Positions 9,453-53,080 of a stretch of DNA of 64,000 nucleotides are shown here, in pieces. The translations under genes and the position numbers were made by a program. The notes under the pieces are model-generated. The model was not told the DNA's origin and made no database searches. It worked only from the letters and a program-made list of their open reading frames with translations. The DNA is taken from NCBI GenBank assembly GCA_047967505.1, contig CM106538.1; one strand, given 5' to 3'. Numbering within the stretch: position 1 is the first letter of the stretch; each line of letters starts with the position of its first letter. This DNA comes from Dipteris shenzhenensis (taxonomy: Eukaryota).

Positions 9453-9704
9453 GTACACGCAGATTCCCCTTGAATGCCTTGAAAGATTGTCGTCGCCCTC
9501 GTCCAAGAAAATTCCCTGTATAGTTGGGCTCAGGGATGCTGTGAATTTGGAAACCGGAGTGATTTCTTTTGCATGATTACCGGAGTGATTTCTTTTGCTT
9601 CTTAATGCAATTACTTGTTTCTCTTTTGTGGAGTCGCAACAGTGTGTTTTGATGCAGTTTTATATTTTTCTCTGTAGGTGTTGGTTGCTTTCGAATTTAT
9701 TGTT

Positions 9705-19440: not shown

Positions 19441-21748
19441 TCATAAGAGTTTCCCCCTCGAAAGTCTCATGCATTTCCTCGGCCTCGGGGGGGTCACTAT
19501 GTATGAACCCTCTATATCACGTGCGTTCGAGGCCTATTTGTAGAATCCCTTATCTGTAAATTTTTCCTTAATAAAACGTACCCTTTTTCTATACAAATCT
19601 GTAAATTTTTTTACATTTCATTTTAAATGCTCCCTTATGTATATTAATTTTTGAGAAATTTAGGAAATAAAAATATCCTTCTGTTGAACTCACGTGATAG
19701 GGTTACATATGATGAGTGACCCCCCCAAGTCCTCGGCTAGGGTTTTGCCTTGCGAAGTCCCTCATCCATGGGTCTTTGTCATCCATGCGTTCCAAGTCAG
19801 AGTGCCCTATGAAGAGTGTGGGTCCTGAGTCCACAAAGGTGGCCTCAATCCCTGCTTGTGGTGGCGGAGGGGCTGGTTGTTGTTGCTAGCCTACCCTTTT
19901 TGCAAACATACTGGCAAAAGGGTTCTCCATATCTATTGAATTCGTTCGATGCAACCATCCAAATATGTTGGATATTGTACCTCTTAACTTGGAGGCTACG
20001 GAAGGAGCAGAAGAATTAGGTGGAGCTAAGTTGGTGTAGGGGGCTTCGAAAGCTCTCGTTCTGCAGTGTCTTGCATTTCCTCATTGAAGTTGTCCATCTC
20101 ATCAGAGCTAGAGGGGTCCTCACATCAAGGCCCTAACACTGAGTGAGAGCTAGGAATGGAGCTCCCAGTTGGAGTCAATCCTGAACTAGGGCGAAAACTG
20201 GGCTGAGCTTAGTTTGAAACACTATCCTCAGGCTTGGGTTCCTTGGAAAAAATTCTTCCAGACCTCAATTGCATGTATAAGATCTCCGTGGAGGTATGTT
20301 CTGCCTCAATTTTAATTTTGTATTTTTTTTTAACAGTGGGTTTATTCCCAAAGGTATCCTCATAGTCTTAGGGTTAGCTGTAAGGTGACGGGCATAGGGA
20401 TAGGCATAAGGTGGCAGGTGTAGGGATAGACTATTGACACATGTCAACGGTTTGGGGTGAGGATGGTATGCCCATAATCGTGGGGTTAGCACTAAAGCAA
20501 TGGGCTACGGGATGATCAAGTCGGCATGATGAGAATATGGTGACGGTTGAAGGGTTAGCTATAAGCCAATGGGAGTAGGGATAGACTTAAATCAACGGTC
20601 AATGGGTTAGATACCTCGGAGGTATGTGAGTATGGCAAAGGTGGTAGGGTTGATAGTAAGCAGATGGATCGTAGGCATAGGCTCAAGGCAATGGATCAAC
20701 GCTTGTCAGACCGACAGGATAGCAGATTCTGACACGTATTAATTAAGGTGGCGGGTTAGATGCCAGACAGCTGTCAGGATGTTTCAATGCATTTTTGACT
20801 GCAGGGATAGCACTAAGGCAACGGGTCATGGGGATAGCACTACGATGATGACCTGTGGGGATAGGAGATGTCTGAGAACACGACTTTTTCTGACCCTGTT
20901 TGGTGATTTTTAAGTTTTTGTTCTAGATTTGAGTGTTTGTGGGTGCTACGCACTACCTAAACTACCTACACTAAGCAAAAAAAAGGAAAAAATAGCAACT
21001 TTTGGTGCACAAATAGGAGATTTCTACATGTGGGACTGTCAACACTCAAAAACCACTTTGGCATTAGGGGAGAATCGGGGTCTCAAAAGGGCCTCCAATT
21101 AGTGTTTCCTAATTTCAAGGGATTAGAGAGTGATTTGAGGTGTACCAATGAGAGTGCTAGAAGGTGTGGGGCAATGGTATGTTGAGGTGGAGGGTGGGCA
21201 GGCCTGCAGAGAGCCCCTATTGGTTGCTCCCCTTACACTAGGGACAAGTACCCAAACCATCCCCCCCCCTCTTAACCCATGTTTGACCCTAATACAAGGT
21301 GCACCTCCCCCACATGAGCCCAAAACTGCCTTCAATGGGATGGTAGGGCCCTTTTGGTGAATTTTCTTCTCCCTCCCTCTTTCTAGGGCCTTTGCCTCCC
21401 ATTGTTCTAGTCCAGCCTGCCAAATCACTCCATTTTAACCAAATCCCATGCATTTTCCCTCTTCCCCCTCTTTCTCTGCTCCGTCCTGCTCTAGCTTGCT
21501 TGCTGCAACTCCTCTCTCTCTCTCTCTCTCTTGTGCCTCTATTGGAGCTGCTCTATCCCTCTCCTTCTCCCTCTCTTGTGCCTCTGTTGCTGCCTAAGGT
21601 TGCTGCTGCTCTGTCCCTCTCCTTCTCCCTCTTTTGTGCCTCTATTGGAACTACTCTGTCCCTCTCCTTCTCCCTCTCCTGTGCCTCTGTTGGAGCGGCA
21701 TTGCCCTATGTAGGAGTCCCATTCTTGCTGGTTGCAACCTCTCCAAGC

Positions 21749-22077
21749 ATGGTGAGGAGGAAGGCTACAAGATCACGCAATGTTGTGACCTCTTGTGTCT
21801 TCCACAACACCAGGAATGCATTGGATGAGTGGATCCCTTGCACCTACAACTTAAATGACTGAATAGTGATGAAAGGATCGGCCAAAGGTCCACATAAGCT
21901 TCCCAAGAGCAAGAGAGGTGAGATCTTGCATGAGTGGAATGGGTGCATCTTGAAGTTCAAGTTTGGAATGAAAGGATGGCTGGCAAAAGTGCAACATCTT
22001 TACATGAGAAAAGATATGCGGCTTCCTCCATCATTAAATCAATCTAGGATATCATCACACTATGAGCCTTTCCATCT
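21749..22077 (+). pseudogene. BAH-domain-like fragment truncated by the CACTA insertion
   Basis: TYNLND*IVMKG...EWNGCILKF..GWLAKVQHLYMRKDM resembles the BAH pattern Y.+GD.V...Y+A.I..+....V.WFY...+; one in-frame stop. Confidence 0.4.
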
Positions 22078-22310
22078 CACTACAAGGCAAAGGCCCTTTT
22101 TGGACAAAAATACCGACGTTTCTTACACTATTTTTTTTTTAAATGGGTGCAAAGGTTGTTATTAACGTCGTTATAAGCGTCGAAAAAGAACGGTCACTAT
22201 ATAGTGACACTAGGAATCATCGCTATATAATGACGCTAATAAACGTCGCTATATAGCGACACTGATAAACGTCGCTATATAGTGACACTGGTAAACGTCG
22301 CTATATAGCA
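22078..22310. mobile_element. CACTA/EnSpm terminus with subterminal repeats
   Basis: CACTACAAGGCAAA at 22078, followed by about five copies of the palindrome GTCRCTATATAGYGAC (first at 22193-22208). Confidence 0.85.
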
Positions 22311-22619
22311 AGGATTAACAAAATTTTAAAAAAAGCATTCGTGGGGCTAAACAGGGCCATAGCAAGCCCTATTTTGCCCCACTAATGTTTTTTTTTGGGT
22401 AATTACAAAAAAAAGTTTTTTATTACAAAATTTCCCTTGCAAAAAGGGTGATACAAAATCACTCAAATGAAATGATCGAGCAACAAAAGCATATACATGT
22501 CGAAGATATACAACATTTTTTGTTACAAAAAATCCCTTTCGAAAAAGGTGATACAAAATCACTCAAACAAGCCGATATACAAAATGATATACATGTCGAA
22601 GTATATGCAAACTACTACT

Positions 22620-23850
22620 ACTAGTCATTCGAATCGTCGTCATCCTCCTCCTCGTCCTCGTCTTGCTGGCTTGATCCTGGGTCCTCGTTAGCTGCACCTG
22701 CTCCCTGACCCTCGTCAGGTGCACCTGATCCCTGGCCCTCGTGATCGCTTGCCTCTGGTGATGGGACGCTTGAGCTTTGACCCTAAGAGTGAAACCATAT
22801 TAATTGAAAATTAGATTGGAACTTAAAGAATAAAACAATTTAAAAGGTGAGATTACAAGTAGGAGTAGACTTATATCGTGTGAGTAACCACCTTAGCCCA
22901 ATAGACCATCGCTCCCATTGGCTCCTGCTCAATAAACCACGACTCTGTTCCTATGTGAAACATGCGTCGTGTCTCTACATTTGTAGGAAGATGACCCATC
23001 GCAGGTTGCTATGGATCCAATTTACAAGAGTTAGATAAAGTGCATGTAATATGTAATAAAACAAATAGAACAATACATTAAATGAGAAGAAATAGACTTA
23101 CCACGGTTGCCTTGAATGCCAACTGTCCACCTGCACCAAAGTGCTAAGTACCTACAACATCTAGCCATCTCCTCGCAGCCCTCGAGCATTTTAGGATGGT
23201 GCCTATTATCTCTCCAGCAGCCGTGATTTGATAGGAGAGGTCCTTGATTGGGTAAGGAGGACTCATGGTACAGTGGCAGAGTCAGAGCAAGTGGAAGCTA
23301 TGCGAGCGCTTCCGAAGCGAGGAGTAGCCGTGGGAGTAGGAGAGTTCAAAGGACCTGACTGATACTATGTCTCGGGACCAAGTGGAGACTTATAGGGATG
23401 TGAGTGTGCTGACTCATCTACATCTCCTAAGTCAGCACAACATAAGCGGCCCCTCCTACTCTTCCTTCCCTTATGATAGGCACGCGCAGGTGATGACCCC
23501 TCGATCGAAGAAGCACGAGCGGATGGCTAGGCAGTAGGTCCAGCCGTCGATGTAGGAGAGGTAATTACTGAGGTCCTCTGTGATAGCAGAGAGAAGGATC
23601 TCATTGCCTCCTCATCGGTCATCTATGCTACAAACTCGTCGGGACTCCCGACAAAGCCATGGGCTGCTAGCAAAGGAGTTCGCCGAGGGGTAGTCACAGT
23701 GCTACCTTCGAGAGGAGTCTGGCCAGGGGTAGTCACAAGGGTATGCTCCTGAGGTGTTGCCTGAGAGGAATCAAAGTCCTCTGGAGCATAGAGATCGTGA
23801 TGTCTCCTCCTGCGAGGCTGTCCGTACTCATTGGACGTGCGACGTTATCC
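22620..23850 (-). pseudogene. degenerate spliced CACTA accessory gene, 3' part (S/P/T-rich, acidic C-terminus)
   Basis: Minus-strand splice-like junctions, GC-richer exon-like segments, ends EEEDDDDSND*; lies just inside the CACTA end. Confidence 0.4.
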
Positions 23851-23889
23851 CATGTCTATCGTAGATACAAAAACAAAAACAAAAAACAA

Positions 23890-25524
23890 AGTCATGCTTA
23901 TGCATGAGCATATAAGCATAAAAGAAAAAGAGAGAAAGCTTAAGCATAAAAGAAAAAGAGAGAAAAAGAGATTGAAAGAGGGGAAAGATGGGGGGGAAAA
24001 GAGAGGAAAATAGGAAAAGAGATTGAAAGAGGGGAAAAAGAAGAGGGGAAAAGAGCATAAACATAAGAAAGAGAAGGAGAAGGAGAAGGAGACATATGCT
24101 CATGCATAAGCATAAGCATAAGAGAAGGAGACGTATGCTCATGCTTATGCTTATGCTTATGCATGAGCATAAGAGAAGGACACATATGCTTATGCTTATG
24201 CATAGGCAAATACATATGCTTATGAAAAGAGAAGGAGGAGGAGGAGACATATGCTCATGCTTATGCATGAGCATATAAGCATAAAAGAAAAAGAGAGAAA
24301 GCTTAAGCATAAAAGAAAAAGAGAGAAAAAGATATTGAAAGAGGGGAAAGAGGAGGGGAAAGAGAGAGGAAAAGAGGAAAAGAGATTGAAAGAGGGAGAC
24401 ATATGCTCATGCATAAGAGAAGGAGACACATGCTCATGCTCATGCTTATGCTTATGCTTATGCATGAGCATAAGAGAAGGAGACATATGCTTATGCTTAT
24501 GCATAGGCAAATACATATGCTTATGAAAAGAGATTGAAAGAGGGAAAAGAGGGGGGAAAGAGAGAGGAAAGGAGGAAAAGAGGAGAAGGAGAAGGAGACA
24601 TATGCTCATGCTTATGCATGAGCATATAAGCATAAAAGAAAAAGAGAGAAAGCTTAAGCATAAAAGAAAAAGAGAGAAAAAGACATTGAAACAGGCGAAA
24701 GAGGGGGGGAAATAGAGCGGAAAAGAGGAAAAGAGATTAAAAGAGGGAGATATATGCTCATGCATAAGCATAAGCATAAGAGAAGGAGACACATGCTCAT
24801 GCTTATGCTTATGCATGAGCATAAGAGAAGGAGATATATGCTCATGCTTATGCTTATGCATGAGCATAAGAGAAGGAGACATATGCTTATGCTTTTGCAT
24901 AAGAGGAAGAAGAGGGAAAGGAAACAAAGCATATGCTTATGCTTATGCATGAGCATATATAAGCATAAAAGAAAAAGAGAGAAAGCTTAAGCATAAAAGA
25001 AAAAGAGAGAAAAAGAGATTGAAAGAGGGGAAAGAGAGAGGAAAAGAGGAAAAGAGGAAAAGAGATTGAAAGAAGGAGACATATGCTCATGCATAAGCAT
25101 ATGCATAAGAGAAGGAGACACATGCTCATGCTTATGCTAATGCTTATGCATGAGCATAAGAGAAGGAGACATATGCTCATGCTTATGCTGATGCATGAGC
25201 ATAAGAGAAGGAGATATATGCTTATGCTTATGCATAAGAGGAAGAAGAGGGAAAGGAAACAAAGCATATGCTTATGCTTATGCGTGAGCATATAAGCATA
25301 AAAGAAAAAGAGAGAAAAAGAGATTGAAAGAGAGAAAAGAGGGGGGGAAAGAGAGAGGAAAAGAGGAAAAGAGATTGAAAGAGGGGAAAAAGAAGAGGGG
25401 AAAAGAGCATGAACATAAGAGAAGGAAGAGGGGAAAAGAGATTGAAAGAGGGAAAAAACAAGAGAAGGAAAGGAGGGAAAAAGAGATTGAAAGAGGTGAA
25501 AAAAGAAGAGAAGGAAAGGAGGGA
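23890..25524. repeat. compound satellite of (ATGCTT)n/(AAGCAT)n hexamers alternating with GA-rich tracts
   Basis: ATGCTCATGCTTATGCATGAGCAT and GAAAAGAGATTGAAAGAGGG are reiterated; the GA-rich tract resumes at 31472. Confidence 0.9.
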
Positions 25525-26242
25525 CATCATATAAATGTGGTGTTCAAAAACAAAATTAAACTTGCAACAACTGTCAATTTTTATTTGGTATATTAGATGT
25601 ATCAAATTAATGCCAAATGCATATGTTTCTATGTTGATAAATTACAGTATTGACATATCCAATAGGATTATGGTAGAGGGGAAAAGAAGGGGGAAAGAGA
25701 GAGGAAAAGAGGAAAAGAGATTGAAAGAGGGGAAAAGAGCATGAACATAAGAGAAGGAAGAGGGGAAAAGAGATTGAAAGAGGGAAAAAACAAGAGAAGG
25801 AAAGGAGGGAAAAAGAGATTGAAAGAGGTGAAAAAAGAAGAGAAGGAAAGGAGGGACATCATATAAATGTGGTGTTCAAAAACAAAATTAAACTTGCAAC
25901 AACTGTCAATTTTTATTTGGTATATTAGATGTATCAAATTAATGCCAAATGCATATGTTTCTATGTTGATAAATTGCAGTATTGACGTATCCAATAGGAT
26001 TATGGTAGAGCTTTGACATCCATCATATAAATGTGGTGTTCAAAAACACCGTTCCATCACAATAGAGCTCGTGAAACTCTCCATCACAATAGAGCTCATG
26101 AAACTCAGAGACATGGTCTTGATAAAAACCTTTTTTTAAATTGCTTTCTTGTGCTAAATATAATCAAAACCATTGACACATAGCCAATTTTGCAACTAAA
26201 TTTTGCACCACATTGTTTAACACAATCATTAACAATTCTATA

Positions 26243-26800
26243 CTAGTATTCATACTCACAAAATAGCTCATCTCTAAAGGAGATATTCTTTATGGTTTGC
26301 ATAGTAATGCAGCCATGGGCACTCAAATCTCCTTGTGACTTTTGAGCCCAAGGTGGTAGCTTAGGGATGTATACAAATATAACATTTGTTCTTTCTTTAT
26401 AATACATTGAGCTATTTATATATCCAGCAATGTTTCCATACAATACATCTCCCACAATACATTTCATATCTATCAATGGCTCAATGAATGGATCTTCAAA
26501 CATTCCATAAGTCTTCATCCTTGGAAAAAACTTGAGGAGAGATCTCCACATATCATAATCATACTTTGGACCATTATATACCATCAAATCTTGTTTCTTC
26601 TTGATGCTCGTATGTACAAAAAGACCATATCCTGCCCCAAGTATTGTTGATTTCTTTACTTCATAATGGATTCCATTCATTTCGAACATGTGCTCAATGG
26701 CTATGGGCAATTCATGTTTCCATAAACCATTGGATGCAGGATCAAAATTTATAATAAGATAGCTCTTCAAACTTTCAGGACAATCTACAACACCTATCAT
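26243..26800 (-). CDS. SET-domain ORF (185 aa), 3' end of a degenerate longer reading frame
   Basis: KSTILGAGYGLF (GxG), YNG, NIAGYINSS (RFINHS-like), ELFCEY*. No post-SET cysteines. The upstream region 27540-26800 is frameshifted coding-like sequence. Confidence 0.8.
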   Translation of the reverse strand: MIGVVDCPESLKSYLIINFDPASNGLWKHELPIAIEHMFEMNGIHYEVKKSTILGAGYGLFVHTSIKKKQDLMVYNGPKYDYDMWRSLLKFFPRMKTYGMFEDPFIEPLIDMKCIVGDVLYGNIAGYINSSMYYKERTNVIFVYIPKLPPWAQKSQGDLSAHGCITMQTIKNISFRDELFCEYEY

Positions 26801-28229
26801 ATGTTTAAATCAAAGAATCATTCTTTTAGTGGAGGAATACAAACTCACATCACAAAGCATAGAGCATTTTTTGCACAAGGTACTAACTCAATGTCTGTTA
26901 ATTCTTTCACAAAAGAAATTGAAACATAACGTTTTGCAAATTGAATCTAACCAAATAATGTCCAAATATAAATCAGAATGTAGGTACAAATGTTTTAGTT
27001 GAGCATTTGTGTCTGCAACTCTAATTAACAAGATCACTCAAATTCACTAAGGATTCTCTATGCAATAAAATCGAATCAAGTTGGCTAAGAATGCCCTTGC
27101 AGCATCAGTAGTGATTCCCCTTTCCTTGCATCCAAGAACCATAGCAAAGCGTTTTGCCTCACTATCTTTCAATGGCCACATTTTGGCAATTTTTCCTAGC
27201 ATGCATTCTTCCTCTTCATTCAATGTAACATGTTGAGCATGCACCATACTTCTTGTAGTAGGACAAGTCCCTCTCACTCTAGTTTTGGTTATAGGTGAAG
27301 CAATACCTTTCTCTGTCTTTTTTTGAACTACGAATAGACATATGATGAGATTTAACATTCATCCTTTTGAGCACTTCTTTGTTTTTTTCTTTGAATTCAA
27401 GGATCAGTGATTGAAAATAATAGAACATATCATGCCCTTCGACAATCGAGGCTTGACCAAATCTATTAGAAGAGATGGCACTGCGCACATCTACTACATC
27501 ATTTAGCATCTGTAGGTATGGCAATAACTCATGAAGCAAAATAGAATCACCACAATCTATATCAAATTTTGTAGGGAAAATGCAATTTTCTGCTAGATTA
27601 ACACAACCGAAGGATCACTCATATGTGATATTTGGTATCAAGGAGTATGTACACTTTTGGGAAAAATGGGCACACCTATAAGGTCCAGAAGCATCTTTCA
27701 CAAAGTTTTATAAGCTGGTAGTGAAGTACTACAAGAACATGATTGATGAGCTTGATAAACCAAACAATAGTGTAGAGGGCATGTACGAGAGATTTTGGCC
27801 AAAGATGCAACATATTGATTGTGTGCAAGTAGTTGATAATGAAAACGATGAGTTTCAAGGAATTAAAGAGTTGAATAATCACTACTGTGGACCTCAAAGG
27901 AAAAAGCCAAAACAATCATTTGATCTAATGGTTAATGTACAAAAAGGACACTTTCTTTTGGTCCGACTAGCAGAAAAAATTTACCAATGGCTAGGCATTG
28001 CTCAAACTGATGTACAGAAGGATAATAAATCTAAAAATTTCAAGAAGGTTCAAACCTCAACATTTGACATTTTATTTATGTTGATGCAAACCATGCACAT
28101 TTGTGAGATTTGGATGGACTGCCAAATCTATGGGAAAAATCAATGAAAAACATTGAATGTTACATAATTACAACCCCTCAAAAATTCCCAAATTATCAGG
28201 ATATTCCCAAATTCTCTAATATGGTGTTC

Positions 28230-28960
28230 ACTCGACTGGTTGGCTAGTCAGATTCTGACTGGGGGGGAGATTTGGATACACAGCACTCAACATCTAGTTA
28301 TATTTTTCTTCTAGCAAGGGGGGGGGGATATCTTGGCAATCCAGGAAACAAAACTCGGTAGCTCTCTCTTCAACAGAGGCTGAGTTTGTTGCAGCAGCAG
28401 AAGCCACAAAGGAAGGTACTTGGCTAAACAACCTATTGAAGGATCTTGCGGTTGGACTGGATCAACCCCTAAAGCTATACCTAGATAATCAATCATGTAT
28501 CACACTCATTCAATCACCAAGGCATCACGAGAAGACTAAACATGTGGATTATAAATACCACTACTTAAAGGAGATATATCAAGCAGGACACCTCGAGTTG
28601 GAATACACGCCAACACAAAACATGTGGGCGGATTTCCTCACCAAAGCGGTACCACGAAGGAAGCATGAAGAATGCAGCAGCTTAGTCGGACTGATCTCGG
28701 CATAGATTAGTTTTTTCTTTTTTCAAAAGAGTTCCTTTCAAGTTCTGTTCTAAAAAGAAGGGGGTGTGTGAGTTAGTGACAAATAAGCATGAAGTAAAAT
28801 TATGAACAATAATATTTACAAATGACATAATGGAAAGGCATCTAGTGTGACAAAGAGTCACAACCGTATCTCTGTAACAAATAAGCCGGTTGGCATCATA
28901 ATCAAATGTTTGTTTTCTACTATCTCTCTGTGTATGAGCAATCGCTCTCGTAAGTGTATG
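28230..28960 (+). mobile_element. Copia RNase H end, polypurine tract and start of 3' LTR
   Basis: SDSD.GGD...STS, ISWQSRKQ.SVALSSTEAEF, DNQSCI, KTKHVDYKYH, MWADFLTK; PPT AAAAAGAAGGGGG at ~28752 followed by TGTGAG. Confidence 0.9.
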
Positions 28961-29860
28961 CTAGTTGAAGTTTTCACAATGTCTCCCATTGTTTGAGCAA
29001 AGTGTGGTCAGATCTGGTCGCGCATCTTCATGTCTTTGGCTCGCTTGGGACATTCTTTGGCAGTCATTAACATTGCAATAGTAGCAGGTGGGCTCAACTT
29101 TTGGCTTGGGCTCCTGTCCATGCCATCTGTCAAGGTGTGGACGTTCTGATACCGAAGGAGGAGCTGAGGCCATCTTCCCAGTGAAGTATGGAGCTTTCTT
29201 GAATATGGGTGGAGGAGTAGTGAGTAACGCACGATCAGCTGCAGGAGTCATTGATTTTCGGCATGCTTCCTCTTGGAGGAGTTGATTGCTGACGAAGGGA
29301 ACAGTGACTTCCTCTCCTCGTCCCTCGATTGTCATGATGAGAGCATCGTAGGAAGGGGGCATACTGTTCAAAATGGTGAACGCGAATTGGCTTATTTTCT
29401 TTCAAATTGGTGTTGGCGAGGATATGCTATAGAATGAGGATGCTCCCTACGTTCTTTTCCTCATACATAGATTGAAGGGTCATCCATGCTTCATGAGTAG
29501 TTAGGCAGTCTTGGACTTGGTTCGCTGGCAGGTCGCCTAGGGTCAAACAGATGATGAGTTTGGCTTGGCGTTCCTTAGCTTTGAAGGTGAAAATCTCCAT
29601 TTCAGATGCAAGAACTTCTTCGACATTTGGTACTGTTGTGGGATTGGAAGGTGCAAATACGCTAGGACCAGCTGTGATTTGTGCTGGAGGAGGAGCATCA
29701 ACAGCTACCAGAATAGCTACCAGGGTGGACAATTCGCTACCAGCTTCAGGTGATGGATTAATCACGATGGAGAGGCTAGGATCTCGTTCGGCTCTAGTCA
29801 CAATAGCCCGTAGGTCTTTTTCTTCTAGAACCATCTTGATTTTCCATTTCCAGATGATGA
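28961..29860 (-). mobile_element. Copia gag (UBN2-type) remnant
   Basis: WKWKIKMVLEEKDL, AKLIICLTLGD..VQDC.T.HEAW..LQ.MYE, NSMPPSYDALI, LLQEE, broken zinc knuckle CYYC. Confidence 0.85.
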
Positions 29861-29880
29861 CCTCCTAGCATGTGGCGTCA

Positions 29881-30081
29881 TCAGAAACACAGGAAATAGG
29901 TTCCTATCCTAGGAAATGACCAAGTATATTTTCCTTCTCCAGGAGGGAATCCCTGCTGATCATTGCCCTCTTGGCCACTGGGGCTTGTAGTGTGTTCGGA
30001 GGCCATGGAGTTGTGAGGAGGAGAGCGGGTTGCATCTAAACAACGTCCAGTGGGTCTAGCAGTTTGTTTAACCCGTGCCAT
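29881..30081 (-). pseudogene. 5' part of an ORF beginning with a histone H3 tail-like peptide (MARVKQTAR)
   Basis: 7 of the first 8 residues after Met match H3 ARTKQTAR; TATATAAA (30113-30120) and AAACCCTAA lie just upstream; truncated where Copia sequence begins. Confidence 0.65.
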
Positions 30082-30362
30082 AGAAATGAGGGATTTTAGG
30101 GTTTTGAAGTGCTTTATATAGTCTTTTTTAAGGCACTTTAGGGTTTTTCTTTTAAATTAGGTTTTTTTGAGTGCACCCCATCCCACTTCGATCTTTTGTT
30201 AGCTAGTTCGGTAATACTTAATCTTCACCACCCTCCCTTCTAACCCACTCACCCCTCCACCCTGCCATGTCGCACATGCAATTCTATAATTTCCAAACAA
30301 ATTTGTGAATTTTGGAATCTATAATTGACTCAAAATAGTGTTAACTTTATTCATCAAACATT

Positions 30363-30946
30363 TTACATTTGGGGTTCTCTTAGGACCCAACGCCTCCCTT
30401 GTCTAACTCTATGTTGCAACAACCAAAGTGCAACCCCTTGGCTCCCTGTTGAGGACTTCCAAGTAGCACATCTCCTTGTCTTCTTGACATGTTGAACCAC
30501 TTTTGCAATACTTGAGAACTCTACCTTATCGCGCTTGAGAGTCTTGGCCTCTAGACATCTATAAAACCAGTCGAACATTTCGTGTAGTGCATTGCTTCAT
30601 GCGATACCACCCCCATGCCTTGTATTATTGAAGTATGATGCCTTTGCTCTGTAGTGTGATTTCTCCATTCCTTGAGTATTCCAAATGGACAGAGGGCCCC
30701 ATTGCTCCACAAACCATGATGCATGTGCGTAAAGAATATGCTATAAAGAAAAACATCATATAAGAAACATAAACTGACTCAAGTTTAAACCACAAAATTT
30801 CAACCTAAGGAGGATTACCATGTAATGTGTAATATGTGACTCCCCCCATGCTTCTACCATCAATGATATGAATTCTCCCAATGCTGTCCTGAATCTCTCA
30901 TAATAAAGCTCATCTATTTGACCTTGAAAAGCATGACTTTTTTTCC
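30363..30946 (-). pseudogene. RAG1/Transib-like DDE transposase, C-terminal exons
   Basis: Removing a 78-nt GT-AG intron (30818-30741) gives EFISLMVEAWGESHITHYM|HILYAHASWFVEQWGPLSIWNTQGMEKSH..HGGG, aligning by eye with RAG1 [31 protein letters not shown]; one in-frame TGA. Confidence 0.65.
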
Positions 30947-32243
30947 TTGCATAACGATAATTTAATTGAATACTGACAAATATTTGGAAGGTATGACATT
31001 GATCTTTTTTCTTTATCTTTTTTTGCAGACCATTGCTTCGTGGTTGCAAGTTCTGCACACTCGACAAAATATGCATTCTTACTTTTTCTCCAACTAAACT
31101 AAAATGGTGTTTTTGAACACCACCTTTTTCTGAGAAGAGGCAAAAAATGCTTCGTTGAACTCAAACATATGATGTTTTTTTCTTGGCTAATGCAGAACAT
31201 GCACACTCCAAAGTGTGAGTTTCATATACACGACCAAATCCAGGGAGAAAGTCAATGGAGTGCACTCAATGCATTGTAATTGCAACCCCTCGAAAAATAC
31301 CATGCATTGGTCAAAACCTCAACATTTAACATTTTATTTATGTTGATGCAAACCATGCACATTTGCAAGATTTGGATGGGCTACCGAATCTATGGGAAAA
31401 TTCAATGAAAAACATTGAATGTTACATAATTACAACTCCTCAAAAATTCCCAAATTCTCTAATATGGAGTTGGAGGGAAAAAGAGATTGAAAGAGGGGGA
31501 AAAAGAAGAGGGGAAAAAGAAGAGGGAAAAAGAAGAGAAGGAAAAGGAGAAAAGAGGGAAAGAAGAGGGAAGAGAGGGGGAAATAGGGTTCCTACACCCA
31601 TCACTGCAGTTAGCACTTAAGGTGCTAGCAAGGCCAATGCAAATAACAAAAATAACAAAAGGAAAAAAGAGGAAGCACTTTCTTACCTAGAATAGTCCCG
31701 CTCGGTGTTTTGTGGTGGACTGGCCCTACAAAGAGAGGAAACATAACATTTTTCAAATAAGTAGTTAAAGGAAGGAGGATTTTAAAGAAGCAACTTCTCA
31801 AAGGGATTGGATTGAGGAGACAAGGAGAAAGAGGAGAAAGAGAAATACAAAAAAGACTAGAAGAGGTGAGTCTTCTTTCTTTCACAAAATCTCGTTTTTT
31901 GTCTCTAACCCTTGAAAATCAAGCATGAAAATTAGCGCATAGCCTTAGCAATATAAGGAAAAACATGCTTCAACACTCATAAAATGAAATCTCACAAAAA
32001 ACGAACCTACATTGCTCAAAGAGACTCACCTTCTTGAAAAACTTATTTTCACACAAGCAAAGAGGGAGAAGGGTGGAGAGGGACCACAAGTGTTTGGAGA
32101 GGGGTTGAGTAGTGGTGAGGAGTGGAGAATAGAGAGGAGGAAAGCGAGGTCTCCGGATATAGGTGGGAGGAAAGATTGCTTTTCTTACAATAGAGATTGC
32201 TAAAGAAAGCGCTGCATCGCGGGGTTTTGGTTTTAGCCCACAG

Positions 32244-32378
32244 CGTCGCTATATAGCAACGCTGGTCAGTCACTATATAGCAACACTTATATTTAAAAGC
32301 ATCACTATATAGCGACGAAACAGAGCAAATCGTCACTATATAGTGATGGAATAGGGCAAAAAGTCACTATATAGCGAC
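32244..32378. repeat. internal cluster of CACTA palindromic motifs GTCRCTATATAGYGAC
   Basis: About five copies, same motif as at 22193-22310. Confidence 0.85.
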
Positions 32379-32487
32379 ACTTCAGAACACTTATTGTTTA
32401 AAGTTAAAAAAGAAGCTCATAGATGTTATTTTATTACTGTTAATATATTTCCTTGCAACTTATGTTGTGCTTTTATAAGTGTGCAGA

Positions 32488-34650
32488 TGGAAGGGACACG
32501 TGGAAGCTTGTCAGATGATGTGCCAATGCCCGGGAGCACAAAGTGGCTTACAGAGAGGTTGTATTGTCATTGCACTCATTGCAAGTGAGAAGTACGACAT
32601 CAACTTCGTCTTATCATGCGCCACTTACGGATGTATGGGGAGGAGCCCGAACCAATACCCATCTTTGGTGTTGCACGTGTTGATGGATTATCAGTAAGTC
32701 AAAGCTATTTAAGTTTGTGGTTAATATTGGATGCCATTATGATACGAAACCTTGAGACAAGATCTTATATTTACATGAAATCTTAAAATAGGATGAGGAG
32801 GCTGACGAGGGTATGCATATACCTTCACATTTTGAGCAAGACTATAGTCTCCCTAATGATGACGAGGGTATGGTCGACATGATGGATTCTATTTTTAGGG
32901 GCACTACATCCCATGTACACGTGATGTCAGAGTCTGAGGTTCAAATGCGAGAGTTGCAATCAACACAGTTGTACGAGGGTGCTAGGATTTTAAACTACAT
33001 GCTTGTCTCTCAATCTTGAATCTGCAAGTAAAGTATGGGTGGTCGGATACAAGTGTCTCAGCCTTAATGAGGTTAGCTCTTGCATTAATTTGTCTCATTA
33101 TTTGGATATTGTTTGTTTTGAGAATCATCATGTATGGATTAGTGTACCGAATCATCATTGTTCGAAGCCTATGTATGTTTGAATTGTGATAGATTGCTCC
33201 AGAAGATGTTGCCTGCACCAAATACCATGCCCGCATCAAGAGATGAAGCAAAGAAGATGCTAACAATGGTGGGTATGGATTATGATACCATCCATGCTTG
33301 CCATAAGACTATATTCTCTTTCGTTGTGAGCATGGAGATTTGGCTAGTTGTCTGAAATGTGGAGAACAACGATATAGAGATGACTTGTAGGGTGAGCAGA
33401 TACCGATAAAGGTCTTGAGACACTTTTCCATCATTGCAAGAATACAGCACATGTTCTGATGCAAATCCATAGCAGAGTTGATGACATGGCATGCATCTCA
33501 TCGGTCCACTAATGACACATTGAGGATTCCCGTAGATTGTGCAGCTTGCAGCTTGGAAGCATATAGACAATCAGTGGCCGGACTTTGCAAGGGAGCCATG
33601 CAACTTACATCTTGGCTCGCCATGGACAGCGTGAATCCTTTCAAGTTATGCTCGACATCTTGGTCGACATGGCCCATAGTCGTGGTGAATTTCAATATCC
33701 CACCATGGCTAAAAATAAAAAAGGGGGACACCTCATGATTGCACTACTTGTGCTAGGGAAGTACAAGGCAAAAAATATGGACATGTACATGGCACCTTTG
33801 ATAGAGGAGTTATAGATATTATGGAGAGGAGTGCGGGTCTTTGATATTTCCAGAGCTGCTAGACATACCAATGATATTTTGGTCAGGGGTATCTTGATGT
33901 GGACCATGCATGACTACCCAGGATATGGAGAGTGCACATGTATGTGGTTGTGTCTCTACATGTATAATATAGGATTATGCTTTTATGACTCTCTTTTGCA
34001 TGCATGTCTTATACTAACACATTCATGCACGCGTGCAGGACTTGTTACAAGTGGGTACCATGCTTGTCCTGTTTGTGGACCAGGTTTGAAATCGCTTGCA
34101 CGATACTCCAAACATATGAGGAAAAATGTTTATGAAGGTCATGCTCGATACCTTCCACTGGACCATCTCACGCATGGAGGTTAGCTTGATCCACCACCAT
34201 CATATTTGAAGGCAAGTGATTATATTCAGGCTTGGAGGGCGAATGGAGAGGAACCTGCTCCTGGTATGAAAAGGCTATCGATCTTTCACGAGCTTCCTTA
34301 TTGGGGTCAGTTACAAATCAATCATCTCTTGGATCCCATGCATATCTTCAAGAATGTGGGGGCTACTATTTGGGCACAATTGGTTGGTTCCAAAGACTCG
34401 AGAGGAGTGCGAGAATACTTGCATGCTATGAATGGGATGTCTCGTTTGTGGGCCCAAGTGCATGCTTCGAGAAAAGTTGTCCTCCCGAAAGCAACGTGGA
34501 TCCTCTCTACGAGGGAGGAGGGAGCGGTTAAGGCAGACATTGCCTCTTTTCAAACACCAACAAGGTATATGCATTGCTTGAAAGGAGCATTTTCAAAGGA
34601 CAATAAGCTTAGTAGGCTCAAGTCCCATGATTGGCATAAGGTCTTACAGG
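32488..34650 (+). pseudogene. CACTA TnpD/TNP2 (Transposase_21) pseudogene, truncated
   Basis: DTIHAC, LMTWHA, MDSVNPF, WPIVVVNFNIPPW, APLIEEL, WTMHDYPGYG, GYHACPVCG, FHELPYW, LDPMHIFKN, LKSHDWHKVLQ; introns, stops and frameshifts. Confidence 0.93.
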
Positions 34651-35117
34651 TATTCTAAGCTGTAGAAGGTTCCCCAAGGAAAAGGGATTGAAAGAAAGAT
34701 GAGCGAAGAGCAAATGGAGAAATTAGTGCCAATTTCATTCCTCCTGCAACTTTGAAGATTGCTAACAATGTGTTTGACTAGTGCAGCATTTAATTTTTTA
34801 TCTGTCAAATCCTAGTTGTTGCTTCAAAAGATGATGGACAATTAAACTAAAATGTTATTTCTTTTAATGTTTTCTCCTTTCAGTTCATGGTAAATGTTTT
34901 TCAAAAAATTTGAGAAATTTATGATTAATTTTAATTTCTAGGGTTTTGATATATATTAAGGGGTAAGAGCCCTTTTTACATCATATTCTCACTTTGATGT
35001 TTAGAGAGCCATAGAAACTCCCGTCCTCAAAATTTACTCCCTCCATCAGCTGCTATTTACCATGGATTCAACTAGAACTATGTTCCATGACTTCATTTCA
35101 TGAACTGCATTTGCAGA

Positions 35118-36053
35118 TCATAAGGAAGAGCTATTTTTAGTGTTTGATAGGACTTTAGATGTCCTAGGCACATATATGCAAGCCAAGGATGACTTCTCAG
35201 ATCTCATCCTTTACATGCAAGATAATTTCTCAAATTTTGCTTATACAGTTGACCACTCTTCAAAGAGATGGGTTCCCATAGATTACATGAAGTACCTATG
35301 CGTAGAGGAACCCAAGTTTGTAAAGCGCTTGGCCCGCTTTTGTGATAACCTTATAGACGAAGGGTTTAGGACAGTCGAAGATCAACACATCCTAGATGCA
35401 GGGATCACAAGAAATACAGGCACCAAATTCCTTTCATGGGAGACGACATTCATCTTCCTTCTCCAAGAAGGAAATTAAGAGGAAGAAGCCCCATCGTCTA
35501 GCACCCCTGCTAGTAGAACTACTGATATGGTCATCCCTAGACTAGACTCGAACATGTACATGGAAGAGAGTCTTGACGATGCAACAGAGGAGATGGAAGC
35601 AGCTCAAGCATTGAGCCTACTTCAAGAGCCCCTAGCAGAGCAAGAACCTGCATCGGAGACCGCTGACCCAGAATTAGAATTATGGTCCTTGTCCCTACTC
35701 ATCATTGATGGAGAAAAGTACGTATTCCTCCATGAAATAGAGGTTCTTTTTGAACTACGAGAGGATGAGGCACTCAGATTCCTATTGGGGTTCGATGTTG
35801 ACACAAGTGTCAAAGATCTTGAGGTTTTAGGTTTCGAAGACCAGACAATGGAAGACTTTCCCTTGATGATGTTGGTTTCAATGAGGGATGCAGACATGTC
35901 CGTATACGATGCACAACCCTCTCATGCAAAAGCTTCCACCTCCAACACAAGTCACGAGAAAGTGTCCACCTCCCAAATGGAACATCACACAGCACTTGGT
36001 TCCATCAACATTGCAAATGAGGAAAGGGGTAAAAGCCAACGATGCTGTAGTGG
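35118..36053 (+). pseudogene. unidentified coding-like remnant (two long ORFs)
   Basis: Acceptor TTGCAG at ~35117; 112-aa and 189-aa ORFs separated by a stop; donor GTAAG at ~36053; no motif recognised. Confidence 0.35.
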
Positions 36054-36872
36054 TAAGTTCGAACAATATTTTTTTTTTAATGTTCTTTTAGTATAACTTG
36101 TTTTTTGGTCTTCTAATGTTTGTTGAATTGTTGTAGGACGCGTTTGAGCTTGATGAATTCTCATCTCGACGGGTTAATGTTTGCAGTGCACTTGGGTGAG
36201 ATCATTCTTTGGCCCTTTACCTTGGCAAAGTCACAGAGCATATCATGGTCTTTCACAACAAATTTTCTCCTCGAGGTCCTTCAAAGCTGCTGAAGTGCAA
36301 GGCATTGTCGCACGCTAATACTCCAACATTACTCAGAATGCCGACAAAGGCATTGTCGCACGCTGTTGGATACTCCAACATTACTCAAAATGCCGACAAA
36401 GTCATTTTGGTACACCGCTTGGCTGGTATCAATGCCTTTGGATCAAACATTCATGGCAGGGCATTGATGGCAACAACTATGTCTTAGGCAGCAAGAGAGG
36501 ACGATGTTAGACTTGCTATTGTGGCTCGATTTATATCTAGGAATCCACTAGGGGATTCAAATACCCCATCACGACACGAATTTGGGAATTCTGGCAAGTC
36601 TAGAATGCCATGACACGAATTTGGGCATTTTGACAAGTCCAGAATGCCCAAATTCATGTCATGGTGGGTTTTGGGCTTTCTAGGGTCCTGGCGAGACATG
36701 CCAAAATGCCCAAATTTGCATCATGGCGGGTTTTGGGATTTCTAAGGTCCTGGCAACGTCTTGGACACTTTTCCCATCTACACAGTGGTGAAATTCCTTC
36801 AAGATTTGACAGAATTCAAAACCCATTAAAATGATCAGTTACTTCAATCATAGAAATGGAGAATACACAACA

Positions 36873-37046
36873 ATGCGATAGTGTAGAGAATGTGGATATA
36901 TACTCCAGGAGGCTGTGAAGCAAGTGACGACCGCTCTATTCGAGGACACCAACTTGTGTGCCATCCATGCAAAGCGTGTCATGGTCATGGACAAGGACAT
37001 GGCTTTGGCGAAGCGGCTATGGAATGACCCAAGCTTGAAGCCCTAG
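36873..37046 (+). pseudogene. divergent histone H3 fold (alpha2-alpha3 region)
   Basis: [71 protein letters not shown] is identical to canonical H3. Confidence 0.9.
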
Positions 37047-39449
37047 ATTCTCTTGTAGCCCCCTCTTAGGACTTAGACCACCCCCTACCCTTGAAGGTGC
37101 ATTGCAACAATGGTTCTATTTCCTAAATGTGCTAGCATCTCTGCTTGGGCTCTGTGCATCTCACTTGCTTGCGTATCCATTGACTGAGCATTGTTTAACC
37201 AATTGCAATAACAAAGCAACCCTGCATGTCCATTTTCAACAAACCGAATTAGCTCATGCATTGTATGTAAAGGAGGGCTCTTTTGGTTGGCAAGATTCAA
37301 AGGATACAAGGATCCTTCTACCCAAATATCGAGATGGTTCTTTCCTTGCAAACGAAGAATGTGGATTTTGGAAGCTCTCCTCAATCCCAGACTACATGTG
37401 CTTACATATTCAGCTTCCAACTCTAAGTGAACCTGGTACTTGTTGGAGACGTCCTTGAATGGTGCCATGACTAAAGGAGTGTAGAGAAGGGGAAGGTGTG
37501 GAGATGCAGGCTTGAAGGGGCAGCACGCAGAAAGAGGGAGGGTGAGGAGGAGGGATGGGGGAGGGAGGACCAGTAGTTAAAGAGGAGGAAAGGGGGGCAG
37601 ACCAGCAAGTGTGGAGGGTGAGGAGGAGTAGGCATGTAGGTGGAGGGAGGGAAGAGCAGGAGGGAGGGGGGAGGAGGAGGGAGGGGGATGGGAGGAGGAG
37701 CAGGCATGGAGGAGGGAGGGAGGGAGGGAAAGGAGGAGGAAGGGGGAGGAGGGAGTGAGGTGGGGGAGGGGGAGGAGGGGGGAGGGGGAGGGGGAGGAGG
37801 AGGGCCGGGGAGGAGGGAGTGAGGAGGGGGAGGGAGGGAGGGGGAGGGAGGAAGGGAGGAGAGAGAAGGAGGAAGGGAATTCAAAATTTGAATTTTGAAT
37901 TTTGAATTTTTTGGTTCCCACCCAAGAGTAAGAGTTGTGTAAGAGGTGGGGTCACTTTTGGGCTTAACCCACCTAGGTAAGGGGGGGTTATGACTTTTTG
38001 GGACCTACCTTGGCCCTTTCATTAGGACTAACTCCATTCCTTATGAGGCCCTTTTGAGACCCCAATTCTCCCCTAATGATTTGAGTTTTAGTCTTCATTT
38101 TTGGGTGTTTTATTGGAATTTGCTATCACATGTGCCTTAGCAATCCTCTACACTATCTTCCTATCAATTCAAAATGCTAAAAAACATAAAAACCAAGCTT
38201 CATATGATCAAGAATGCTTTCCAAAAGATTATAAGAGTTTTCTTTTTTTTCCATCCAAACACACTTCTTCACTCATTCCTGTCCTACAACTCCACTATTA
38301 AAGCTCCAAGTTAAGCTTAAAACAATGAGCAATGGGTACATGACGAGAGAAGGCAAGTGCAATGAAAAAACATACCTTGAACTACCCGGTAGTGGCACCA
38401 AAGTAGGGATGTTTTTATCGAAGCTATGCATATATATTAATATAAAATCTTGGCAAAAGTTTTCAGTATCATTTTTTTAGTTTCACAATACTAGTAGAAT
38501 GTAGTACTTTTTTATTTTTTTTATTTTAAAATTTGAAGGGAAAAATGTAAATCTTGGCGAAACTTTAAATTTTTTTGCATAAAAATTTCAAATCCTATCG
38601 AATGTTTCAAACATTTATTTTTACTAGGGCATACAAACTTTCGATGCCAATATAAAAGTTTAGCTTCTTAACAAAACTAACTTGAAAAACTAATCCATGC
38701 ACGAAAGATGTGTAGTCCCAATGGTGACTCAAGTGTAATGGGGATCTTGAAGGAATGCCGATAGAGCCTCCACTCCAAGCTACTCCTTGTGAGAGCAATG
38801 CAAAGCACAAGCCATCCGCAAGTGTCACTCAAGCAGCTCTCGGATTGTTGCAATGTGTTTCCACGAGAGAAAAAGGAAAGGGGGAGAGGGGAGAAAGAGA
38901 GGGAATGGAAGGAGAGGGAGGAGGGAAGAAGGAAGTGAAGGGGATGGAGTGGCAAACACAAAGGCACTACAAAGAAAACAAGAGAACCCCCAAAGACACT
39001 CTTGGAAGAGAAGAGGGAGCTTGTATGCCAAACTGTGTATTCAATAATGAAGACCAAAGTCAACCATTTGGCCTTTTATACAAGTCACCTTTTGAAGGGA
39101 GGGCCAACCCTTTTCCTTATATGACTCTCTCTCATCTCTCTTTTGTTGCAATCACTTGGGCCCATATGGTGCCAAGGCATTCTCTCAACCTCCTCTTGTC
39201 CTCAAATGGTTCTTGTGTTATCCATACACGGGATCCAAATGGCTCTTGTGTTATCCTTGCCAATTTGGATGATCTCGGCGCCTACCTTTGTCTTAAGCCA
39301 TTTGAGGCTCAAAATCCATAGGACTAGAATGATGTTGAGCCATTTGTGGCTCAAACCCCATCGGGCCATCTTGGTGTTGACCCATTTGTGGCTCAAAACC
39401 CATATGGCCGGATCCGTCACCATGCTCCATGGCTATGGTTGTTAGCAGA

Positions 39450-42400: not shown

Positions 42401-42850
42401 CTCCTAATGGACTGAAACTTGGTATGCCTCTAAGTCACATCATGCCCAAGAACTATATCAAATCTTGTCCCATAAATAGGTCTTTATATGTCTTTTTTTA
42501 ATAAATAACTACATTGCACACACATGAACACGCATGGGTCATCAATGTTAAGTGTTCATAACCAAGGAGTCAAAAAGCAACCCCTTAGCCCGTGGATCTT
42601 GAAAGTGCAAGCAGAAGCACTACCTCTCTAGTCTGGCCAATGAAGTGTATCCCTTGCCTAAGCGGGCCTACATTGCGGGTCTCGTAGTCAGATGGGCCTA
42701 GAGAAGACAACCCCAAGGTACGCGTATGACGAAACTATCTCAATAGGTGACCCAATCAAACGTGAATTGCTCCTGGTGCATGGCGGCTCGAGATGTCTTG
42801 AAGACCATAACCTTGTCCCATAAATAGGTCTATACATGCTTTTTTTTTTA
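39450..42850. repeat. satellite array, ~356-bp monomer, ~10 copies
   Basis: Anchor CCATAAATAGGTCTATACATG at ~39628, 39975, 40333, 40687, 41045, 41399, 41758, 42111, 42471, 42819. Confidence 0.95.
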
Positions 42851-47689: not shown

Positions 47690-48375
47690 CTTGATCAAAG
47701 CTCGAATTGATCGGTGATGACGAGTGAAGGGTCGGAGAGTTGATTGGTCATCGTAGGAAGCTGAAGGTGATCGGCTAGTGACCAATTCCATCATCAAAAG
47801 CTGGAGGACGGATCGATCAAAATGTGCTTCCCTGAAAGTCGATCGATCAGTCGATCATGAGAGAAGCTTGCTGAAAATCATCGAGCTCGATTGAAGGATA
47901 GGATTGCTTCGAGTGTGGAAGGGTCGGATTGATCAGGGAAGCTAGCTCGATTGGTAAGGGAGAGCGATCGAGTTGCCTGATCATCGACGTGGGAAGCTGT
48001 ACAGCAGCTGGAGGACGGATCGATCAAAATTGTCCAACTGCAAGTCGATCGATCGATCAGTCGATGGTCGTAGATTAAGCTTGCTGAAAATCATCGATCG
48101 TTGATTACAGGAGTGCAGGGTAGCTAGTGATTAGTGCCATCATCAATAGCAGCTGTAGGACGGATCGATCAAAAATTTGCTAGCTACAAGTCGATCGATC
48201 AATCAATCGATGATCAGGGTAGCTAATGATCGATGCCATCATCATGAATAGCTGCAACGGATCGATCAAAATTTGCTAGCTACAAATCGATAGATCGATC
48301 ATCGATCATTCAGTCGATGATCAGAGAAGCTTGCTAAAAATAATCGATCATAGTCAAAGATTGATTGATTGATCG
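47690..48375. repeat. GATC/TCGA-rich diverged tandem repeats upstream of PHT1
   Basis: GCTG.AGGACGGATCGATCAAAA and AAGTCGATCGATC recur at ~47800, 48008, 48152, 48250. Confidence 0.8.
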
Positions 48376-52879: not shown

Positions 52880-53080
52880 GTGAGCATCTCTAAAAATGAC
52901 TTTGAACTATTTCACATTAAATATAAATACTTTGAATTTGCTAGAGTTCACTTGCATAATGTCTTGTATGGTTCCAACATAATCCATTTTGCTTGCAGTG
53001 AGATTTGTATCCCTCACATTAGCTCTACAGTCTTGCGAAAAGTTGGCCACAATTGCTCAACCAAATGTGTTGCACATCTG
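52880..53080 (-). pseudogene. CACTA transposase DUF4216-like fragment
   Basis: IVANFSQDCRANVRDTN..MDYVGTIQDIMQVNSSKFKVFIFNVK*F resembles the Y.G.IE+I.E+DY...+F...W pattern. Confidence 0.6.

Follow-up and report, generated by a model that had tools for sequence, protein, structure and literature searches.

We analysed a 64,000-nucleotide stretch of Dipteris shenzhenensis DNA (GenBank assembly GCA_047967505.1, contig CM106538.1; hereafter the window), of which the part between 21 and 38 kb carries an intact open reading frame (ORF) with a predicted SET domain, the remains of a CACTA transposon and two short stretches that resemble parts of histone H3. An earlier reading of the letters alone (the original prediction) had described here a cluster of chromatin-related cargo inside nested transposons, made up of a BAH-like fragment, a SET domain, an ORF with a histone H3 tail and a divergent H3 fold. 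Our analysis points to a different picture, in which the SET ORF is a copy of a module of CACTA transposons and the other pieces are probably unrelated to it. The SET ORF, its neighbour and the CACTA parts that surround them are as follows.

22078, plus strand: CACTA-type terminus CACTACAAGGCAAA, followed by subterminal repeats.
22193–22316, plus strand: left cluster of CACTA subterminal repeats, unit GTCGCTATATAGYGAC in tandem.
26243–26809, minus strand: intact SET ORF, 188 codons from stop to stop (Met at 26800, stop at 26245–26243, 185 codons).
27390–27608, minus strand: remnant resembling a NIF (FCP1/SCP-like) phosphatase, just upstream of the SET ORF.
32230–32380: second cluster of GTCGCTATATAGYGAC subterminal repeats, immediately 5' of the transposase gene.
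32479–36096, plus strand: degenerate, frame-shifted CACTA transposase with no SET exon; Pfam Transposase_21 on three ORF pieces, 33460–34184.

The SET domain was borne out more strongly than first reported, as a 188-codon ORF with a family of 31 representatives and a confidently predicted SET fold. Alone, the ORF scored 19.8 bits against the Pfam SET family (PF00856; cut-off 22.4), a word-indexed search at near lengths found no homologue, and a single-sequence search of the PDB returned EZH2 alone, at an expectation value (E) of 0.39. An exhaustive phmmer search of 1.84 billion cluster representatives yielded 31 representatives at E ≤ 1e-3, including 19 at E ≤ 1e-10 and three at E ≤ 1e-30; the best of them, P0001, shared 45% identity over the whole ORF (E 2e-40). 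Pfam SET was matched at E ≤ 0.01 by 17 of 23 scanned relatives, and 14 of the 23 reached the Pfam cut-off. All columns that are invariant in the family (G62, Y101, N126, S133 and N142) were kept by the window ORF in an alignment of 16 sequences, comprising the window and 15 of the 31 representatives. The AlphaFold2 model built from this alignment had a predicted local distance difference test score (pLDDT) of 84.7 and a predicted template modelling score (pTM) of 0.79. With this model Foldseek retrieved 345 PDB chains at E ≤ 0.001, the top ones all being SET domains with a probability of 1.0.

The top Foldseek matches were MLL2, MLL1, EZH2, SETD8, G9a and SET7/9, and since the MLL, EZH2, SETD8, G9a and SET7/9 domains all had template modelling (TM) scores of 0.5–0.65, the SET subfamily cannot be named. 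The family profile likewise matched solved SET domains, LegAS4 at E 1.4e-8 and MLL1 at E 7.5e-6, with GNvAGYiNSS aligned to GNAARFINHS and geElFvdYef aligned to GEELTYDYKF. The cofactor and catalytic motifs of SET domains are called GxG, NHS/C and the ELxF/YDY tyrosine; the window ORF reads GAGYGLF, GNIAGYINSS and ELFCEYEY. Throughout the family a serine replaces the histidine, giving NSS where MLL1 has NHS, and the asparagine and tyrosine are kept. These results indicate that the window ORF is a real, intact gene with a predicted SET fold.

We then asked where else this family is found. The sources of 20 of the 31 representatives were looked up and included eight gene models from Adiantum nelumboides (on eight contigs), one from Diphasiastrum complanatum and one from Ginkgo biloba, so that the family occurs in a lycophyte (Diphasiastrum), a fern (Adiantum), Ginkgo and metagenome contigs. 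The Adiantum models (among P0006–P0016) join a near-identical SET module to Tf2 SH3, reverse transcriptase or P450, and one of the fusion partners is, by eye, a piggyBac-like stretch; these eight chimeric models are therefore likely a gene-prediction artefact of a dispersed repeat. Viral contigs gave 23 pattern matches and no relative. A tree of 34 rows, which took in 14 of the 31 representatives and from which four loci with pieces shorter than 100 amino acids were dropped, resolved two clades: clade A (12 rows, support 95/88) and clade B (22 rows). Clade B holds the SET domains embedded in a transposase gene, plus that of Ginkgo. Clade A holds the window SET, small stand-alone proteins, Adiantum, Diphasiastrum and two metagenome loci (L001 and L002); its members are stand-alone proteins of 143–212 amino acids, several of them from transcript-like assemblies. 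The window SET is thus placed in the sister clade of the CACTA-embedded one.

The link between SET and CACTA transposons was provided by the metagenome contigs. An alignment-based scan gave 23 SET loci, in which CACTA parts were sought by tblastn (E ≤ 1e-5) with parts of the best-preserved locus, L004, as queries. A transposase-associated zinc-finger exon lay 400–500 bp upstream of SET in 14 of the 23 loci and a tnp2 core lay downstream in 11; one or both were present in 18 of the 23, on the SET strand every time. Where at least 1 kb of sequence was available downstream of SET, tnp2 was found on the same strand in 11 of 12 loci, the exception being L023, with a DUF4218 match on the opposite strand. 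Neither CACTA part was detected by tblastn in L001, L002, L006, L009 and L023, and for L006 and L009 the sequence available downstream is shorter than 410 bp; in the tree these two are sister to L007 and L012, both of which are linked to CACTA. By Pfam, L004 showed Transpos_assoc (weak), SET (7e-10), Transposase_21 (1.7e-73), DUF4218 and DUF4216, and L005 showed a like order from Transpos_assoc (weak) through DUF4218. Within clade A, Pfam found in L002 a transposase C-terminus (DUF4216, 5e-13), then, after 135 bp, a Transpos_assoc exon (6.5e-6) and SET, and in L001 the SET is preceded by a 346-codon NIF-phosphatase-like ORF (PF03031, E 1e-15).

This NIF-like ORF (L001:3569–4606) reads ILDLNGVLL. 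The motif of the NIF phosphatase family is DxDxT/V, and with asparagine in place of the second aspartate the ORF may therefore encode a pseudo-phosphatase. A further L001 ORF upstream, of 519 codons (321–1877), had no Pfam family.

To estimate constraint, the ratio of nonsynonymous to synonymous substitution rates (dN/dS) was calculated between copies. For the SET exon it was 0.18, 0.18 and 0.17 in the pairs formed by L004, L005 and L010 (200–202 codons; dS 0.77–1.24). Between L004 and L005 the tnp2 exon gave 0.15, the DUF4218 part 0.10 and the zinc-finger exon 0.19. Since the SET values are as low as those of the transposase parts, SET is under transposase-like constraint, and it evolves under purifying selection in the CACTA-embedded copies.

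A three-way DNA alignment (L004:4140–5310, L005 and L010) revealed how the exons may be joined. The zinc-finger exon ends at a GT donor in phase 0; about 85 bp of unconserved sequence follow, then a conserved AG acceptor that opens the SET exon in phase 0. The stop of the SET exon falls in one alignment column in all three copies, and conservation is lost past it. The transposase exon is in turn opened by a conserved CAG|GA acceptor, also in phase 0. From this arrangement we infer one CACTA transcription unit whose alternative splicing would join its first exon either to SET or to the transposase, giving a zinc-finger–SET protein and a zinc-finger–transposase. The plant-restricted SET family thus appears to be an accessory module of CACTA transposons. 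The proposal of a SET writer encoded by a family of transposons is supported at the level of the family, as judged both by co-occurrence with same-strand CACTA parts (18 of 23 loci) and by dN/dS across the three intact-copy pairs (0.17–0.18, purifying).

Returning to the window, the SET at 26246–26785 was the sole SET match by tblastn, and it is flanked on both sides by CACTA subterminal repeat clusters. The NIF remnant upstream of it aligned with residues 155–226 of the L001 NIF ORF (49% identity over 73 amino acids, E 4e-16). It lacks the N-terminal half, the place of which is occupied by an unrelated plus-strand ORF. The minus-strand ORF at 27047–27358, tried as the end of the NIF ORF, is colinear with it and gave no significant match (E 0.86).

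Membership of the window element in CACTA is indicated by the presence of both subterminal repeats and a tnp2-type transposase. The L004 transposase matched 33194–34304 by tblastn (E 2e-49), and its DUF4218 part matched 34311–34649. The CACTA terminus pattern, with three mismatches allowed, had 13 matches in the window against 7.5 expected and is not itself beyond chance; the case for a terminus at 22078 is made by the adjoining GTCGCTATATAGYGAC repeats and not by the pattern. A right terminus matching the left end was not found at 35.9–38.1 kb or near 32.4 kb. TAGTG at 36048 and at 36879 was considered as the right end and rejected, as beyond CACTA neither resembles the left end. Because no matching right terminus was found, the 3-bp target duplication of the element is unreadable. 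The two subterminal clusters scored alike in inverted (116) and direct (103) alignment, and therefore two layouts have to be considered: there may be one CACTA element that starts at 22078 and carries a 9.9-kb insert in its subterminal region, or two adjacent elements.

A minus-strand ORF at 22624–22782, which lies some 550 bp inward of the CACTA terminus, closes with an acidic stretch (...DEDEEEDDDDSND). No family was found for it, and it may represent the last part of an element gene on that strand.

The remaining items of the presumed cargo were the histone pieces and the BAH-like fragment, which lie at the following positions.

21749–21859 and 21863–22165, plus strand: the 'BAH-like' stretch, two short ORFs with no recognisable family.
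29884–30081, minus strand: H3 start fragment, an ORF of 66 codons that begins MARVKQTARPTGR, recognised by motif expectation and sequence reading.
36882–37046, plus strand: H3 C-terminal fragment, from the second half of helix 2 to helix 3, with stop codon.

The MARVKQTAR start at 30081 on the minus strand is real, the expectation for MAR.KQTAR in the six-frame window being 2.3e-6. Compared with canonical H3 it has T3V plus one lost residue. The likeness to H3 is limited to about 13 residues with all three frames read, and the tblastn match was not significant; the ORF then continues directly into copia gag. A search for relatives of 36–116 amino acids sharing three words with it found none. 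Upstream of the ORF lie TATATAAAG at 30120–30112 (39 nucleotides from the start) and AAACCCTAA at 30146–30138 and 30104–30096, which we take to be plant promoter elements.

Of the H3 fold reported at 36873–37046, the similarity to H3 held and the whole fold did not, as the C-terminal third alone is present. The 54-codon ORF at 36882–37043 (plus strand) covers H3 residues ~91–131 (41 codons) with E 1e-11 and 42.4 bits against Pfam Histone. By tblastn its identity to four H3 probes was 59–72% (36900–37019), which is low for H3. An AG after a pyrimidine run stands directly 5' of the similarity, as at an exon border. When the whole window was searched with the four H3 proteins (tblastn, E ≤ 50), 36900–37019 was the only significant match. 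No complete H3, with tail and helices 1–3 in one frame, was found, and the window contains neither helix 1 nor the first half of helix 2. The two pieces lie on opposite strands, head to head and 6.8 kb apart, and no H3-like sequence accompanied SET in any of the 23 related loci. As judged from their sequences, the H3 pieces are most plausibly short scraps of H3 genes and not functional histones or mimics. Transposon activity may have picked them up or broken them from a gene, one scrap being a promoter-like start and the other a tail like a last exon.

For the BAH-like fragment, placed at 21749–22077 by the original prediction, the outcome was negative: Pfam matched no family at E ≤ 1 or E ≤ 0.1. 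More precisely, 21347–21862 and 21863–22165 had no match to any family at E ≤ 1, and 21749–21859 had none at E ≤ 0.1. The stretch stops exactly where the CACTA terminus starts. No BAH domain is present. The left-arm ORFs were also considered as the N-terminal portion of an H3-like gene that the CACTA insertion had divided. This was rejected: in eight Smith-Waterman comparisons with four H3 proteins, each with 2000 shuffles, the shuffles reached the observed score 261–1622 times in 2000.

The region is bracketed by an inverted repeat and holds further transposon layers and repeats.

21062–21095, plus strand: left arm of a 34-bp inverted repeat, 97% complementary to the right arm.
23850–26010: purine-rich satellite with units of 45, 51 and 332–351 bp, downstream of the minus-strand SET ORF.
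27682–28146, plus strand: ORF of 154 codons with no family; no Pfam match, and unnamed clusters only in the ESM Atlas.
28052–28197 (plus strand) and 31314–31459: 146-bp direct repeat, 94% identical, bracketing the block of copia and the H3-tail ORF.
28961–29864, minus strand: Ty1/copia gag fragments in two frames (Pfam Retrotran_gag_2, E 8e-8 and 2e-5).
30363–31160, minus strand: three ORF pieces with no family and no Pfam match.
37620–37877: simple repeat rich in GA, close to the right arm; its mirror counterpart by the left arm is a CT-rich run at ~21500–21700.
38045–38078, minus strand: right arm of the 34-bp inverted repeat, pairing with 21062–21095.

The inverted repeat is as real as had been claimed, with 33 of 34 positions complementary (97%) between the arms. 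Its 29-nucleotide core occurs at just two sites in the window, with 0 expected from 100 shuffles. Gapped alignment lengthened the repeat to ~52 nucleotides only and gave no support to long degenerate terminal repeats past the 34-bp arms, and no target-site duplication of 2, 3, 8 or 9 bp was read at the flanks of the arms. The repeat brackets the region and does not demonstrate that it is one mobile unit. The description of the sequence as composed of transposons only is good for the bracketed 17 kb, where transposon-type coding remnants alone were found; the wider window beyond 21–38 kb has host-like ORFs and other transposons. The 17 kb would thus be a heap of decayed transposons around a CACTA element, with copia, satellite and unassigned pieces inside. 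Among these, the 146-bp direct repeat may mark the two ends of an element or be a scar left by recombination. The ORF at 28298–28705 presumably resembles the C-terminal end of a copia polyprotein, with no match in Pfam, and that at 30756–31160 gave weak, hAT-type leads in the ESM Atlas (score 0.83–0.86).

Elsewhere in the window we noted the following features.

4161–4682, minus strand: mitochondrial-carrier ORF.
9678–12005, plus strand: hAT-type transposase spread over two long ORFs; it carries a zinc finger of the C17orf113 type as well as the hAT dimerisation domain.
39400–42600: satellite with units of ~356 and 712 bp in 5–7 copies.
48373–50241, plus strand: sugar-transporter ORF, 623 uninterrupted codons (Sugar_tr, E 6e-48).
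52919–53056, minus strand: short DUF4216-like match to the L004 transposase (E 1e-7), a second CACTA fragment in the window.
58436–58668: 13-bp microsatellite.

The surroundings of the sugar-transporter ORF are locally GC-rich (0.55 vs about 0.42), and the hAT transposase seems better preserved than the CACTA transposase of the window. A Ty3-type RNase H also lies outside the 21–38 kb stretch.

Taken together, the region is probably a decayed, CACTA-centred pile that holds a copy of the CACTA SET module, unrelated H3 scraps and no BAH domain. How the module would serve its element can be outlined from the related loci. In clade B the SET exon would be spliced in frame to the first (zinc-finger) exon of the transposase and end at its own stop, and the element could therefore make a zinc-finger–SET protein besides the transposase. 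In clade A, SET would be a separate small ORF, which in one case stands directly downstream of a transposase and in two cases follows a NIF-like ORF. The product is a predicted S-adenosylmethionine-dependent lysine methyltransferase, which the shared DNA-binding exon would bring to the DNA of the element. There it might methylate lysines of neighbouring nucleosomes, or of the transposase, in a way that favours the element, possibly by countering silencing or by choosing targets.

Several observations weigh against this reading. On the minus strand of the window there is no tnp2 and no zinc-finger exon; the only tnp2 is on the plus strand, 5.7 kb from SET, and lacks a SET exon. A transposase is present in one of the three clade A contexts that could be placed (L002), the other two, L001 and the window, having the NIF-like ORF. 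The 23 loci are partly redundant, with identical SET parts in L014 and L016 and in L018, L019 and L020, and with L006 nearly identical to L007. Stops are frequent among the copies: of the 14 pairs tried for dN/dS, 10 failed because of stops in the aligned piece, and one was saturated. The splicing model is taken from DNA alone. Methyltransferase activity is not assured, because the canonical NHS reads NSS. Within the window, the order of nesting is not settled, because neither the right terminus nor a target-site duplication was found, and the occurrence of two H3 scraps and SET within 11 kb is left to chance as an odd coincidence. With neither tnp2 nor zinc finger on its strand and with a truncated NIF partner, the window SET is therefore best described as an intact ORF within a stranded unit that is partly truncated; it would be either a copy stranded recently or one that still acts in trans. 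The caveat already attached to the original prediction, that the pieces sit in different nested layers and need not form a single element, turns out to be its better reading, since the window SET has no same-strand transposase.

These points bear most directly on the possibility that the window SET is a gene of the host, whether ordinary or domesticated, or a host copy captured by a transposon, the CACTA link being confined to the sister clade. Clade A could indeed be host genes, because its members are small stand-alone ORFs in transcript-like assemblies; the SET strand of the window is free of transposase and zinc-finger exon, and the SET ORF is intact amid decayed surroundings. Yet L002, itself in clade A, has its own transposase-associated exon and lies 135 bp downstream of a transposase C-terminus, the fern module recurs in a repeat-like manner in eight gene models with unrelated partners, the NIF partner ORF in the window is truncated, and the SET stands between CACTA subterminal repeat clusters. 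We therefore regard a host gene as unlikely. A related question is whether both H3 pieces stem from one resident H3 or H3-variant gene split by transposon insertions and an inversion. The start piece has promoter-like motifs and a start codon, the tail piece has a 5' border like that of an exon and includes the C-terminus with its stop, and both have diverged from canonical H3 (59–72% identity in the tail, T3V and the lost residue at the start). Against such a common origin, the pieces lie head to head on opposite strands at a distance of 6.8 kb, the middle 80 residues of H3 are nowhere in the window, and the left-arm ORFs are not H3-like, the best of the eight shuffle tests being 261 in 2000. 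A single H3 gene is thus rather unlikely.

Taken as a whole, the original prediction would amount to one or more transposons here carrying a coordinated kit for anti-silencing or target choice, in which a SET writer is joined by a reader, by an H3-like fold and by an H3 tail that serves as decoy or substrate. In its favour, three H3 and SET items that are each beyond chance occur in 11 kb of transposon sequence, the SET, the H3-tail ORF, the NIF remnant and the copia gag are all on the minus strand, and the nearest solved relatives of the SET profile include H3K4 methyltransferases. The reader, however, is absent with the BAH domain, none of the 23 SET loci has an H3-like sequence, the H3-tail ORF has no relatives (36–116 amino acids) and is H3-like over ~13 residues only, and the C-terminal piece, 41 residues long, lacks helix 1 and lies 6.8 kb off on the opposite strand. 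We judge this kit very improbable. Of the idea that transposons here encode their own reader, writer and mimic modules, the writer is supported at the family level and the reader and mimic are not, since BAH is absent, the H3 pieces are fragments and no H3 accompanies SET in the related loci. The coordinated kit is not supported, and the apparent cluster of chromatin cargo is mostly coincidence. One further version would have the window be the broken copy of a full kit, carried by a CACTA lineage of seed-free plants with a zinc-finger-tethered SET, the MARVKQTAR ORF as decoy or substrate and the H3-like tail. We consider this the least likely of the readings; if it were true, the H3 pieces would not be junk, and the element would evade silencing by writing a histone mark and mimicking it as well.

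Under the reading preferred here, a decayed CACTA pile with a stranded SET module, the message of the window alone is modest: one stranded intact SET copy, two histone scraps and no BAH. At the level of the family it is of wider interest, as transposons with their own chromatin enzymes are rare and are informative on the arms race with host silencing. If the zinc-finger–SET product is real, a plant CACTA lineage would tether a lysine methyltransferase through the DNA-binding exon of its transposase, with selection on SET as strong as on the transposase, and the mark that a transposon wants on itself would become directly testable.

SET domains have been met in other transposons. In a literature search by titles and abstract openings, with Repbase Reports outside its scope, no land-plant tnp2-type CACTA with SET was found. 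SET genes are described in HarbingerS and oomycete MuDR families (PMC12730594), and also in Helitrons and in the Plavaka accessory gene PAG2 of the red alga Bostrychia (bioRxiv 10.1101/2025.02.11.637652). HarbingerS, the oomycete MuDR families and the Helitrons are, like the present elements, transposon lineages with a domain of the SET histone-lysine-methyltransferase type; they belong to other superfamilies and hosts and are compared here by description only. In contrast to them, our loci suggest a tnp2-type CACTA of vascular plants in which SET shares the first exon of the transposase. Plavaka is closer, being described in the bioRxiv account as a member of the CACTA/EnSpm superfamily with a SET-bearing accessory gene. 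There, PAG2 joins a DNA methylase to SET in giant elements of 17–19 kb, whereas here SET joins the transposase-associated zinc finger or follows a NIF-like ORF; Pfam found no DNA methylase domain in the SET loci scanned.

Three well-known systems complete the comparison. Pack-MULE, CACTA and Helitron transduplication places short host-gene pieces with exon-like borders inside DNA transposons, and both H3 scraps would fit such gene-fragment capture, with breakage of a resident gene as the alternative. SETMAR is a primate fusion of SET and mariner. It resembles the present arrangement in having SET and transposase in one gene, and differs in being one domesticated gene of the host, the transposase of which is immobile; the arrangement described here is found in many copies, some decaying and some intact, that have full transposase genes. 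In En/Spm, TnpA and TnpD are produced from one transcription unit with a shared first exon by alternative splicing. In L004, L005 and L010, the phases of the exons and the conserved position of the stop are consistent with such a scheme, the difference being that the predicted second product of the present CACTA elements would be a SET enzyme in place of a TnpA-type DNA-binding protein.

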